DNA from: Escherichia phage cardinal
Reading direction: 5' to 3' (one strand)
Sequence record: PQ567651.1
Length of the DNA: 64,000 nucleotides
Shown here: in pieces, positions 23,165 to 25,411 of the stretch
How the letters are laid out: every line of letters begins with the position of its first letter
How positions within the stretch are numbered: the first letter of the stretch is position 1
Translations under genes and position numbers: made by a program
The notes under the pieces: model-generated
Told to the model about the DNA's origin: nothing
The model's input: only the letters and a program-made list of their open reading frames with translations
Databases searched by the model: none

Positions 23165-23376
23165 AGAAGCTAAGTATTTAGGGTTAAGTCTTATTAGTTC
23201 AGGGTTATCAAATCTTTTTATTCTGGAGTAGTCGCAACTCTACTCCACGTTCTCTTATGAACTGCTGCACATCACTGTGCAGAATAGACTATATCATCAT
23301 CTCCTAAGAGATGCTTTGCTTTTCGAGCAGCATTTGCTTCTGCCCTACTCCCTTTCGGGATAGTCGTTGAACTACA

Positions 23377-24057
23377 TCACCAATTGTAGTTATTAGATAA
23401 GTACGTATAGGTTTTCCTATCTTTAATACTCTTAACTACATTAAAACTTACACCGTATTTTTTAGCTATTTTATTTATTGATAGAATATTTTCTTGCAGC
23501 TTTTCACAAATCCCTAAGACTTTATCTTCACTTATTCTGTTGGAAGAGGGTATTTTTCTAAAGTTAAAGTCTTGTGAAATGTCTTTATATGTTCTGCCAG
23601 CTTTTATATCACTAACAACAGATTGTGCCACATTATACATCTGACAGATATCTTTGTTACGTGATCCTTGCTCTAACAGTTTGCAAATTTCCACAGCAAC
23701 AGTGTCTGGAATAGGTCTGTAGTCATTTATGACTTCTGTTCGTCTTAACCCTGTGGACATAGCATGAAGAGTATTCTCTTGTTCTGTTGTCCACTCAAGA
23801 TTGTCTGCACAATTATTAAGTTTGTTGCCATCTTTGTGATTAACAAAAGGCTTATTTTCAGGGTTAGGCACAAATGCTTTTGCTATCAACCTGTGCTGTA
23901 ATTCTTCTATCCTACTACCATTTTCACAAATGGTTACTCCCTTGTAATCTCCAAGCATTTTATTTTCGCTTAGGAATTTTTGGGTGTATAAACTAAAAAT
24001 ACGACCATCGTATGTGGCGCAATAATGCGGGTATCCGATGAAACCTAAGTTTTTCAT
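23377..24057 (-). CDS. HNH homing endonuclease (intron-encoded)
   Basis: 226 aa; VNHKDGNKLNNCADNLEWTTEQENTLHA is an HNH-type motif; C-terminal helix-turn-helix-like region; own promoter and RBS. Confidence 0.8.
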   Translation of the reverse strand: MKNLGFIGYPHYCATYDGRIFSLYTQKFLSENKMLGDYKGVTICENGSRIEELQHRLIAKAFVPNPENKPFVNHKDGNKLNNCADNLEWTTEQENTLHAMSTGLRRTEVINDYRPIPDTVAVEICKLLEQGSRNKDICQMYNVAQSVVSDIKAGRTYKDISQDFNFRKIPSSNRISEDKVLGICEKLQENILSINKIAKKYGVSFNVVKSIKDRKTYTYLSNNYNW

Positions 24058-24089
24058 TTTACTCTCCTACTAATATTTTTGGAGAAGTG

Positions 24090-24118
24090 ATTATAGCTGC
24101 TGATTATCTATTTGTCAA
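24090..24118 (-). promoter_or_regulatory. consensus sigma70 promoter TTGACA-N17-TATAAT driving the HNH gene
   Basis: Minus strand TTGACAaatagataatcagcagcTATAAT, then AGGAGAG and ATG at 24057. Confidence 0.6.
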
Positions 24119-24172
24119 TAGACTTCCCAGCAATTAACAAAGTTATTCGATGTGCATCGCTGCACAAAGCCA

Positions 24173-25411
24173 CTATTGATTAATGGTTCCACCAATGAAC
24201 ACAAATGTTTGTGGTTCAATAACCACTGTTTCACCTGTGTTTGGGTTTTGCATAAAACAATTTTCAGGATACTTTTCTTTCAACTCTTCTGCTGTTTCAG
24301 CAAAGACTGGTTCATCTTGCACAATAAGAAAGTATAGCTGTTTGCCACACATATCTTCTCGTGGATAACCAGCTTCATCCAAATAAGGAAGTACCCATTT
24401 CAACACCCAACTATTTGCATCAGGGTTACAAGTACACAGCATAAAAGACGTTTCTGATTCAGAACGCATACGCCCTAACAGATACAGCATTTCATATTGT
24501 GTAAAATGTGTAAGTTCGTCAAACCCTACCATCGAATACTGTGTACCTTGATGGTTAGTTTCAGCAGTTACGTTATCATTTTCAAGATGGTCAAATTTAA
24601 GTGTACCACCTTTTGTGGCTCTGAACTCCATCTCCATAGCCTGTTCTCTTACGTGAGGCTTTAATGGTAGATAAAGTTTCTTAGCTTCAGTAAACAGACC
24701 ACCAGATTTACGTAAAGCTGTTGTATTTTTACGGAAAAGAATACCACCAAACAGTGGATCTTTATATGCGTATTTAAGTGCCTTTAGAAGTAGCAGACGG
24801 CTTTTGCCGCTATTCCCAGTAACGAAGATGTGATCGCCACGTCTAAACACGACATAACTGCTTGGAGTTTCAAAGCAATATTTCTTATCATCACTTGTCA
24901 TTACCTCATGAATTTTTAGATATGTGCTAGGTTTACCTTGAATGTTAAACGGAACACGTTTACCAAAAGGATTTTCAATATATCCTCGTAATGGGTGTCC
25001 TGCTTGCTGTAATGCAATAAGATCCCCAACAAGAATTTCAAAATGTTTTTTGGATTTTTTCTTCTTGTAGAAAACAAAGCGATGTTCCATACTTAATTCT
25101 TGGAAGACACCTACTCCGTTTGTGATACAATACAGATTATCTTTAGCATCATATTCTACAAAAGATGGTGTAACTAATTCAAGACGTTTATTTCTTGGAT
25201 TGTATTGATAAATATCCTCACCATCATATTCACTTATTTGTTTCCAGCCGTCTCTTGTTAAGTATTCTGTTTCTGCTGAAACACAACCTGCCGCACCACC
25301 ATAAATCATTACTTCAGGCATAAGATCCATAGCTAGTGTTTGTTTGCCAGGTTGGGCTTTAACTTCAATATCTACATTTTCAAAAGATTGTTTGACAGGT
25401 TTCCTTGCCAC
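24173..25411 (-). CDS. terL: terminase large subunit, ATPase domain (exon 1), containing an in-frame mini-intein
   Basis: 412 aa; Walker B MVGFDELTHF and C-motif TCNP present; Walker A is only complete after removing residues 43-200. Confidence 0.8.
   Translation of the reverse strand: MARKPVKQSFENVDIEVKAQPGKQTLAMDLMPEVMIYGGAAGCVSAETEYLTRDGWKQISEYDGEDIYQYNPRNKRLELVTPSFVEYDAKDNLYCITNGVGVFQELSMEHRFVFYKKKKSKKHFEILVGDLIALQQAGHPLRGYIENPFGKRVPFNIQGKPSTYLKIHEVMTSDDKKYCFETPSSYVVFRRGDHIFVTGNSGKSRLLLLKALKYAYKDPLFGGILFRKNTTALRKSGGLFTEAKKLYLPLKPHVREQAMEMEFRATKGGTLKFDHLENDNVTAETNHQGTQYSMVGFDELTHFTQYEMLYLLGRMRSESETSFMLCTCNPDANSWVLKWVLPYLDEAGYPREDMCGKQLYFLIVQDEPVFAETAEELKEKYPENCFMQNPNTGETVVIEPQTFVFIGGTINQ
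24812..25285 (-). other. mini-intein (about 158 aa, no endonuclease domain) in the terminase P-loop
   Basis: Begins CVSAETEYLTRDGW, has SMEHRFVF (TxxH-like block B), ends YVVFRRGDHIFVTGN followed by Ser; precise excision gives YGGAAG|SGKS, a canonical GxxxxGKS Walker A. Confidence 0.65.

Follow-up and report, generated by a model that had tools for sequence, protein, structure and literature searches.

Group I introns are known from the gene of the phage terminase large subunit (terL). The closest described case is the rV5 terL intron, published in 2013 under the section title 'Introns in terminase' (Kropinski et al., Virol J 10:76; PMC3606486), and the rV5 record gives terL as a three-exon join with the HNH gene ORF65 (ORF64ABC). 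Another, according to its citation in the same paper (Mikkonen & Alatossava 1995, cited in PMC3606486), is the group I intron in the large-terminase gene of Lactobacillus phage LL-H, an unrelated siphovirus of a Gram-positive host. Terminase introns of other phage groups are also found in the literature, and the BASEL collection annotates the rV5-type terL introns. Here, we analyze a 64,000-nucleotide (nt) stretch of Escherichia phage cardinal (sequence record PQ567651.1), referred to as the window, in which terL is very probably split by a 969-nt self-splicing group I intron that encodes an HNH homing endonuclease, and in which the same gene carries a mini-intein in the Walker A motif. Because of the LL-H precedent, the combination of terL with a group I intron is not new. 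The cardinal intron is a previously unannotated example of a well-understood class of elements, with an unusually clean homing footprint, and it leaves the understanding of how such elements work unchanged. Together with the intein, it offers a compact example of a single essential enzyme whose formation would require RNA splicing as well as protein splicing.

The second terL intron of rV5 occupies the same site as that of cardinal, G-x-T-I/F-D-N-P (AACCAU/...G/AUUYGAUAA; slashes mark splice or insertion points throughout). It has a homologous core (~67% identity over the whole intron) and an orthologous HNH gene at the same P6a position, whereas the phages themselves belong to different subfamilies, rV5 to the Vequintavirinae and cardinal to the Stephanstirmvirinae. 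Unlike cardinal, rV5 lacks an intein in terL and has one more intron further upstream, near Walker B. This extra intron lacks an open reading frame (ORF), is seen in both rV5 and RudolfGeigy (84-85 bits; 849-1127 of the locus segments), and sits at a position corresponding to cardinal TerL residue 300, which is uninterrupted in cardinal. The td/I-TevI intron of T4 and other subgroup IA phage introns share with cardinal a core with P7.1 and P7.2 and an endonuclease ORF in the P6a loop, and td further resembles it in having the ORF promoter inside the intron and in homing with co-conversion. The two differ in the enzyme (HNH in cardinal, GIY-YIG in td), in the host gene (terL versus a nucleotide-metabolism gene) and in the promoter (sigma-70 consensus versus T4 late promoter). 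At the protein level, the nearest described enzymes are the HNH nicking endonucleases I-HmuI, I-HmuII and I-BasI from the DNA-polymerase introns of Bacillus phages SPO1, SP82 and Bastille, which are likewise encoded by group I introns and are likewise built of an HNH_3 module followed by helix-turn-helix modules. The cardinal protein is ~30% identical to I-HmuI over 147 residues, with another target gene and another host clade.

All coordinates given below are those of the window, and the terL, HNH and portal genes all lie on the minus strand. Over 3.2 kb, the terL region shows 99.1% identity to that of Escherichia phage vB_vPM_PD114 and 99.0% to that of Salmonella phage UAB_1, both of which are phi92-like myoviruses (Stephanstirmvirinae, Justusliebigvirus). 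The ORFs of the locus, after which the portal gene is next in order, and the exons and intron assigned to them are the following:

25411..24173, minus strand: ORF of 412 aa (Pfam Terminase_6N)
23377..24057, minus strand: ORF of 226 aa, HNH homing endonuclease gene in the P6a loop (Pfam HNH_3, E 1.8e-9, and helix-turn-helix matches; 1U3E, E 1.7e-10)
23164..22358, minus strand: ORF of 268 aa (Pfam Terminase_6C; includes DDIPDA)
24183..25411, minus strand: terL exon 1, ATPase domain, GTG start (ORF list, Terminase_6N, junction with BME3)
23214..24182, minus strand: group I intron, 969 nt (absent from intron-less alleles; RF00028 matches to both halves)
22358..23213, minus strand: terL exon 2, end of the ATPase domain and RNase H-like nuclease with DDIPDA (Terminase_6C, junction, spliced translation)

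The Rfam group I intron model, RF00028, matches the interval in two places in an E-value scan of 22300..25500. The 3' half (23453..23265, minus strand; 47.3 bits, E 3.3e-10) aligns with the R and S elements, P3', P8 and P9, and the 5' half (24192..23980, minus strand; 27.2 bits, E 3.5e-4) with P1, P2, P3, P4, P5 and P6. When all 64 kb are searched, the 3' half match still has E 7.7e-9, and with E-values of this size chance is excluded for the sequence match; no second intron was found in the E-value scan of the whole 64 kb. The R element GTTCAACGACTA is located at 23372..23361 and the S element GATGATATAGTC at 23298..23287 (minus strand), and RF00028 aligns UCAACGACUA and GAUAUAGUC to the conserved P7 strands. 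An earlier reading of this stretch from the letters alone (the sequence-only reading) had named these two elements as the ones pairing to form P7 and had suggested a covariance-model search as a check; both proposals are borne out by the alignment. The two Rfam matches represent one ribozyme, since P3 (7 bp, CUUUGUU with AGCAAAG) pairs the halves across the ORF, with a U-A to C-G change in the rV5 clade. The elements of the fold are as follows:

24087..24175, minus strand: 5' ribozyme half (Rfam alignment, pair counts, RNAalifold)
24175..24170, minus strand: P1 3' strand, internal guide UAGUGG
24165..24152, minus strand: P2 hairpin
24142..24136, minus strand: P3 5' strand
24132..24098, minus strand: P4-P5-P4'
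24097..24087, minus strand: P6/P6a 5' strand, GCUAU(A)AUCAC
23224..23380, minus strand: 3' ribozyme half (RF00028, pair counts)
23380..23371, minus strand: P6a/P6 3' strand, GUGAUGUAGU
23365..23361, minus strand: P7 5' strand, within the R element
23360..23349, minus strand: P7.1, UCCC-GAAA-GGGA
23345..23325, minus strand: P7.2, GGGCAG...CUGCUC
23320..23314, minus strand: P3 3' strand
23313..23298, minus strand: P8
23291..23287, minus strand: P7 3' strand, within the S element
23282..23265, minus strand: P9
23262..23249, minus strand: P9.1
23247..23224, minus strand: P9.2

The fold was evaluated on an alignment of seven homologous cores, from which the ORF loop of the ORF-containing copies had been removed, using a hand-drawn structure of 77 pairs that comprises P1, P2, P3, P4, P5, P6/P6a, the P7 pseudoknot, P7.1, P7.2, P8, P9, P9.1 and P9.2. 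Only three P5 pairs were counted, because the MAFFT register in P5 is wrong for some of the sequences. The cells are paired in 97.8% of the cases, compared to 35-47% when the partners are slid by 1 to 3 columns, and both-sided changes are found at 24 of the 77 pairs, compared to 0-5 in the slid controls. None of 500 shuffles matches the observed pairing or covariation. Nine of the 13 counted helices are 100% paired and the remaining four 90.5-98.2%; the unpaired cells of P6a arise because ORF-less and ORF-containing homologues do not share homologous P6a columns. P7 (5 bp) pairs in all seven homologues, and its pseudoknot with P3 is intact. RNAalifold, run unguided, recovers P1-P6a, P7.1, P7.2, P8, P9, P9.1 and P9.2 with 25 covarying pairs, the pseudoknotted P7 being outside what the program can predict. 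P7.1 and P7.2 are present in the minimum free energy structure and covary, and their position between P7 and P3' is presumably that of the subgroup IA architecture of T4-like phage introns.

Several observations weigh against a functional, self-splicing intron and have to be considered. The default Rfam gathering scan reported only tRNAs and no intron, both halves being below the gathering threshold of 50 bits. The canonical P10 is weak, and a convincing pairing of the guide with exon 2 was not found. The covariation set consists of seven sequences from three lineages only, in which P1, P4 and P7 are invariant and hence give no covariation evidence for or against. A hairpin over the Shine-Dalgarno sequence of the HNH gene (UUCUCC with GGAGAG, 24086..24062) has a folding energy of -5.8 kcal/mol and z = -1.0, which is not significant alone. 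Finally, splicing, endonuclease activity and promoter use all rest on inference.

The sub-threshold scores and the weak P10 are what would be expected of a decayed, splicing-incompetent intron, in which case terL would be defective or dependent on a helper protein or a helper phage. We regard this as very unlikely. Each half probably remains below 50 bits because the ORF of about 700 nt in P6a separates the halves and the model cannot span it, and the ORF-less homologues at the same terL site reach 95.6 bits (RudolfGeigy) and 92.7 bits (WM) against RF00028. Moreover, the helices of the core are all intact, and so are the splice-site U.G pair, the terminal G of the intron (omega-G) and the R and S elements; near-identical copies are present in the independently isolated, plaque-forming phages PD114, UAB_1 and nepoznato, which need TerL.

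As a separate observation, RNAalifold pairs J2/3 UCGAAU (24143..24138) with the first six bases of exon 2 (23213..23208; AUUUGA, or AUUCGA in the rV5 clade). The columns are nearly invariant, and the pairing may be either a non-canonical P10-like contact or a coincidence.

The ends of the intron are given by the intron-less alleles. Most relatives align to 70% of the query, in two pieces. The terL of BME3 is a single coding sequence of 2085 nt, to which cardinal aligns with an insertion of 969 nt, and BME3 and phi92 lack exactly these 969 nt, reading GGTGGTACTATC/TTTGATAAC across the insertion site. Exon 1 ends with GGAACCAU (24183) and exon 2 begins with AUUUGAUAAC (23213), while the intron begins with UAAUCAAUAGUGG and ends with AAUAAAAAG, its omega-G being at 23214. 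The last U of exon 1 is the partner in the U.G pair of P1, and the allele-derived boundaries coincide with this wobble (exon ACCAU/ versus guide GUGG) as well as with the terminal G (AAAAAG/). The Rfam alignment of P1 sets the wobble on the same U. The joined exons amount to 2085 nt and encode 694 aa, differing from BME3 TerL by N333D only. The spliced translation across the junction is FIGGTIFDNPELI, with FVFIGGTIFDNPELIR as the junction-spanning TerL peptide, and the ligation GGAACCAU/AUUUGAUAAC would restore the conserved TerL motif FIGGTIFDNP.

The length of the intron is divisible by three, so the frame is equal on both sides, and the terL frame contains 42 stops within the intron. The first of these (TAG, 24175..24173) is located in the P1 3' strand, i.e., in the internal guide sequence, and the last two in the P9.1 loop (TAA, 23257..23255) and the P9.2 stem (TAG, 23242..23240). 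From the alleles and the fold, the correct gene model is terL = join(25411..24183, 23213..22358) plus an intron-encoded HNH gene. The GenBank records of the relatives PD114, UAB_1 and nepoznato show terL as two genes or as hypothetical proteins, and this annotation needs correcting.

The sequence-only reading had described the same arrangement, namely an ATPase ORF and a nuclease ORF with DDxxDA separated by an HNH ORF, and all three are present on the minus strand. It had placed the insertion at 24185..23170; the insertion stands, while the ends have to be moved by 3 nt on the 5' side and by 44 nt on the 3' side, to 24182..23214. It had also put an in-frame stop inside the P9 hairpin, which is right as to in-frame stops and wrong as to their location, since the last two lie in P9.1 and P9.2. 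Its statement that a colinear terL product is impossible without splicing agrees with the 42 stops, and the comparison with intron-less alleles that it had proposed returned exactly 969 missing nt in BME3 and phi92. Its observation is thus confirmed, and its interpretation of terL as split by an HNH-encoding group I intron is supported, the covariance model, the intron-less alleles, the covariation and the homing footprint described below being in agreement.

A DNA search with the intron returned near-identical copies in eight records. Among the 132 Stephanstirmvirinae terL records, eight carry the intron and 124 are intron-less, a sporadic occurrence that speaks for spread by homing. The rV5-like phages (Vequintavirus, Avunavirus) have copies of ~67% identity at this terL site too, and ORF-less versions of ~250 nt are also among the matches. 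The 5' junction AACCAU/UAA and the 3' junction AAGG/AUUCGAUAA are common to all homologues. A search of openly licensed PubMed Central and bioRxiv texts gave no published description of the intron or the intein in phi92, phAPEC8, PD114, UAB_1 or nepoznato.

The introns of cardinal and of nepoznato, which belongs to the genus Phapecoctavirus, are identical at 968 of 969 positions, whereas the exons have only 76-84% identity per segment. In the 600 nt compared on either side of the junction, the terL sequences of nepoznato and of the intron-less Phapecoctavirus ZCKP1 agree at 98-100% of the positions, except for the 56 nt directly 5' of the intron. In this tract, nepoznato matches cardinal at 56 of 56 positions and ZCKP1 at 46 of 56. 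Downstream of the intron, recipient-type bases are back by +13. The intron-plus alleles all read GGAACCAU/A, while the intron-minus alleles read GGTACTAT/C in Justusliebigvirus and GGGACAAT/A in Phapecoctavirus. By these alignments, the 56-nt tract is a co-conversion footprint of the kind that homing initiated by an endonuclease would leave behind, the donor being of Justusliebigvirus type. Because it is asymmetric, with its 56 nt upstream of the intron, the tract predicts that the enzyme cuts on the side of the 5' exon. The intron is recently mobile and has passed, as a unit of 969 nt, from one phage genus to another. With its 56 nt of donor exon, the element offers a natural example on which HNH-driven marker exclusion can be studied in E. 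coli phages of therapeutic use.

The GenBank annotations of UAB_1 and nepoznato, which give two terL coding sequences and an HNH gene and no intron, correspond to a different view of the locus, in which terL would consist of two independent genes, the second one starting from TTG at 23164, whose products assemble non-covalently, with a free-standing HNH gene in between. Both terL halves are indeed ORFs with start codons. However, the interval between them has the fold of a complete, covariation-supported group I core, the removal of exactly 969 nt restores the in-frame gene of the 124 intron-less relatives, and the element has been transferred between genera in one piece of 969 nt, together with a co-conversion tract. 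In addition, the ORF from 23164 lacks TerL residues 411-426, including the conserved FDNPELI. A split terminase of this kind is accordingly judged to be highly improbable. As to the exact splice sites of the group I intron, two choices of junction are equally good with respect to BME3, but a shift by 1 nt (exon 1 ending in ACCAUU and the intron in AAAAAGA), although it also restores the frame with the same three mismatches to the intron-less allele, has next to no chance of being correct, because the intron would end in A instead of the universal G of group I introns, the Rfam alignment assigns the U.G wobble to the U of ACCAU/, AACCAU/UAA...AAGG/AUUC is common to the homologues in rV5, Vequintavirus and Avunavirus, and the unshifted choice alone yields an exon-final U together with an intron-final G.

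The protein encoded within the group I intron consists of an I-HmuI-like HNH domain and helix-turn-helix modules. It matches I-HmuI (PDB 1U3E) with E 1.7e-10 and shows the conserved HRL...V(N/D)HKDGNK.NN...NL.W, and a full-length comparison with the intact HNH orthologue encoded in the rV5 intron gives 62% identity. The P6a 3' strand of the ribozyme contains the last codons of the HNH ORF and its UGA stop. Upstream of the gene lies the consensus promoter that had been noticed from the sequence alone:

24090..24118, minus strand: sigma-70 promoter match TTGACA-17-TATAAT, 12/12 (motif scan)

This is the sole perfect sigma-70 match in the 64 kb, where 0.09 would be expected. It lies 33 nt upstream of the HNH ATG. 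The -35 hexamer is in the P5 loop, and the -10 hexamer coincides with the P6a 5' strand. TATAAT is found in the ORF-containing homologues and is absent from the ORF-less ones, while the -35 hexamer of the rV5 intron is weaker (TTGCTA, read by eye). The predicted transcript would start near 24083, 26 nt upstream of the ATG, and we infer that the HNH gene can be expressed independently of terL from this predicted promoter.

In T4 td, the ribosome-binding site of the endonuclease gene is occluded in the read-through pre-mRNA, and the transcript from the internal promoter disrupts the occluding hairpin of I-TevI. By comparison, occlusion in the cardinal intron is possible, with a hairpin that is weakly supported. 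The Shine-Dalgarno hairpin mentioned above, for which rV5 and 18-1-2 show apparent compensatory changes (read by eye), could hypothetically occlude the HNH ribosome-binding site in the read-through pre-mRNA. RNA initiated near 24083 would break this hairpin up.

These elements suggest the following course of events. terL would be transcribed as a single pre-mRNA, from which the ribozyme (24182..23214, minus strand) would excise itself by two guanosine-initiated transesterifications. In this process, the CCAU that ends the 5' exon would base-pair to the GUGG of the guide, the U.G wobble falling on the splice site, and the intron would end in G. The HNH endonuclease would be expressed from its own promoter embedded in P5/P6a, independently of terL. 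In a mixed infection, the enzyme is predicted to cut or nick intron-less terL near GGT-ACT-ATC/TTT-GAT, and repair off the intron-bearing genome would then copy the intron together with a short stretch of the 5' exon. The translated TerL precursor (694 aa) would subsequently excise the 158-aa intein from its Walker A loop to give the active ATPase, with a mature protein of 536 aa.

The intein is located in exon 1:

24812..25285, minus strand: mini-intein coding region, TerL residues 43-200 (family alignment, profile match, fold)

It splits the Walker A motif as GGAAG/intein/SGKS, with Cys43...Asn200/Ser201 at the ends (Cys1...Asn158 and Ser+1 in intein numbering). Exon 1 reads MIYGGAAG/C...158 aa...VTGN/SGKS, and the TerL of rV5 has an uninterrupted GGAAGSGKS. 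Searches with the single sequence were unproductive: Pfam up to E 10 gave no match, phmmer versus PDB returned noise only (WW domains), a word-indexed protein search found only five near-identical fragments, and single-sequence AlphaFold gave a pLDDT of 42. An exhaustive HMMER search of representative sequences, on the other hand, recovered 734 intein relatives. Typically, the similarity to them falls into two blocks, an N-terminal one of ~75 aa and a C-terminal one of ~40 aa, in proteins of many lengths. The sampled hosts are RecD-like, ResIII/DEAD and SNF2 ATPases, in which the Pfam match of the host resumes just past Walker A.

None of 12 family members deviates from Cys1 or from the terminal Asn, and at +1 they have S, T or C. 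The family alignment shows the motifs LS.EH, YCF and a terminal GN, and the +1 residue is followed by GK[ST]. The family profile matches the AceL NrdHF intein (6ZGQ) with E 3e-8, and an AlphaFold (AF2) model from an alignment of 11 sequences has a pLDDT of 94.2. The top Foldseek matches to this model are 6ZGQ (TM 0.74-0.76), BIL domains, the Prp8, DnaB and DnaE inteins, and Hedgehog. The modeled structure thus supports the assignment of the terL insert as an intein with a HINT fold, in line with the suggestion of the sequence-only reading that terL carries an intein besides the intron.

The best match in both profile and fold is the AceL NrdHF class 3 intein of the P-loop intein family (6ZGQ; PMC7891396). 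The two inteins are alike in Cys F:4, Thr G:5 and a similar spacing to the terminal Asn. They differ in that the terL intein is contiguous and AceL NrdHF is split, in that the terL intein also keeps the invariant Cys1, and in the host site, which is the Walker A motif of TerL. Cys1 is accompanied by the invariant Cys137 (YCF, class 3-type F:4) and Thr156 (G:5), the class 3-type Cys(F:4) and Thr(G:5) being as described in PMC7891396, and there is no Trp at B:12. This sequence does not decide between the class 1 and class 3 mechanisms. The intein has no endonuclease domain, and its penultimate residue is Gly in place of His.

The intein is present in 132 of 132 Stephanstirmvirinae terL records, and all phi92-like and phAPEC8-like phages of the collection carry it. 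Its identity bands are shared with the nuclease domain, 55 records being at least 99% identical and 77 being at 80-90%. The phi92 and BASEL records inspected do not annotate it, nor does any other GenBank record inspected, and a 2024 paper states that no inteins have been reported in coliphages (PMC11162368).

It is worth mentioning here a more speculative idea, which we consider unlikely, that the maturation of TerL is gated at two levels, by the intein as a domesticated switch and by an interdependence of promoter and ribozyme. Being fixed in 132/132 records and devoid of an endonuclease, the mini-intein may be a domesticated conditional switch rather than a parasite. One example would be redox gating by a Cys1-Cys137 disulfide, which may hold the packaging ATPase inactive until late infection. 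Similarly, as the promoter is made of P5/P6a nucleotides, endonuclease expression and ribozyme folding may be mutually dependent. If so, transcripts from ~24083 would lack the 5' ribozyme half and would free the HNH ribosome-binding site.

A number of related elements were noted in other phages. The terL of Escherichia phage 18-1-2 (Avunavirus, OK136180) apparently carries three self-splicing elements (segments 850-2520 and 43-1389). One of these is an intein of ~330 aa of the same Walker A family, GGAAG/CLSKDHEVL...VVVTGN/SGKS, in which LAGLIDADG_3 gives a sub-threshold match only (E 0.068), so that the domain is a possible one. The intein is accompanied by two group I introns, of which the second is the HNH-containing homologue of the cardinal intron.

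The 3' core of the cardinal intron (approximately nt 808-964) has a DNA identity of 72-80% to introns in unrelated genes of many phages. These include the ribonucleotide reductase beta subunit of a Serratia jumbo phage and the DNA polymerase of Salmonella phage Vi06 and of BASEL Bas93/Bas94, and further relatives are found in crAss-like phages and in Pectobacterium Certrevirus. At the sequence level, this similarity indicates one widespread ribozyme lineage that has colonized many genes.

In cardinal itself, at least 14 tRNA genes are clustered at 26931..29689 (minus strand), downstream of the block of lysis and terminase genes. A further match resembling tRNA-Sec, at 29193..29278, stays below threshold (35.1 bits, with 47 required).

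Finally, unannotated records labeled 'Campylobacter phage' with the host Campylobacter jejuni (MG065639, MG065645, MG065656, MG065689 and ~10 more) have a terL region that is 99% identical to that of the E. coli phi92-like phages. Others have intron matches with the coverage and identity of rV5-like coliphages (about 67% or 77%). Probably the Campylobacter label is in error, or else the sequences stem from contamination.

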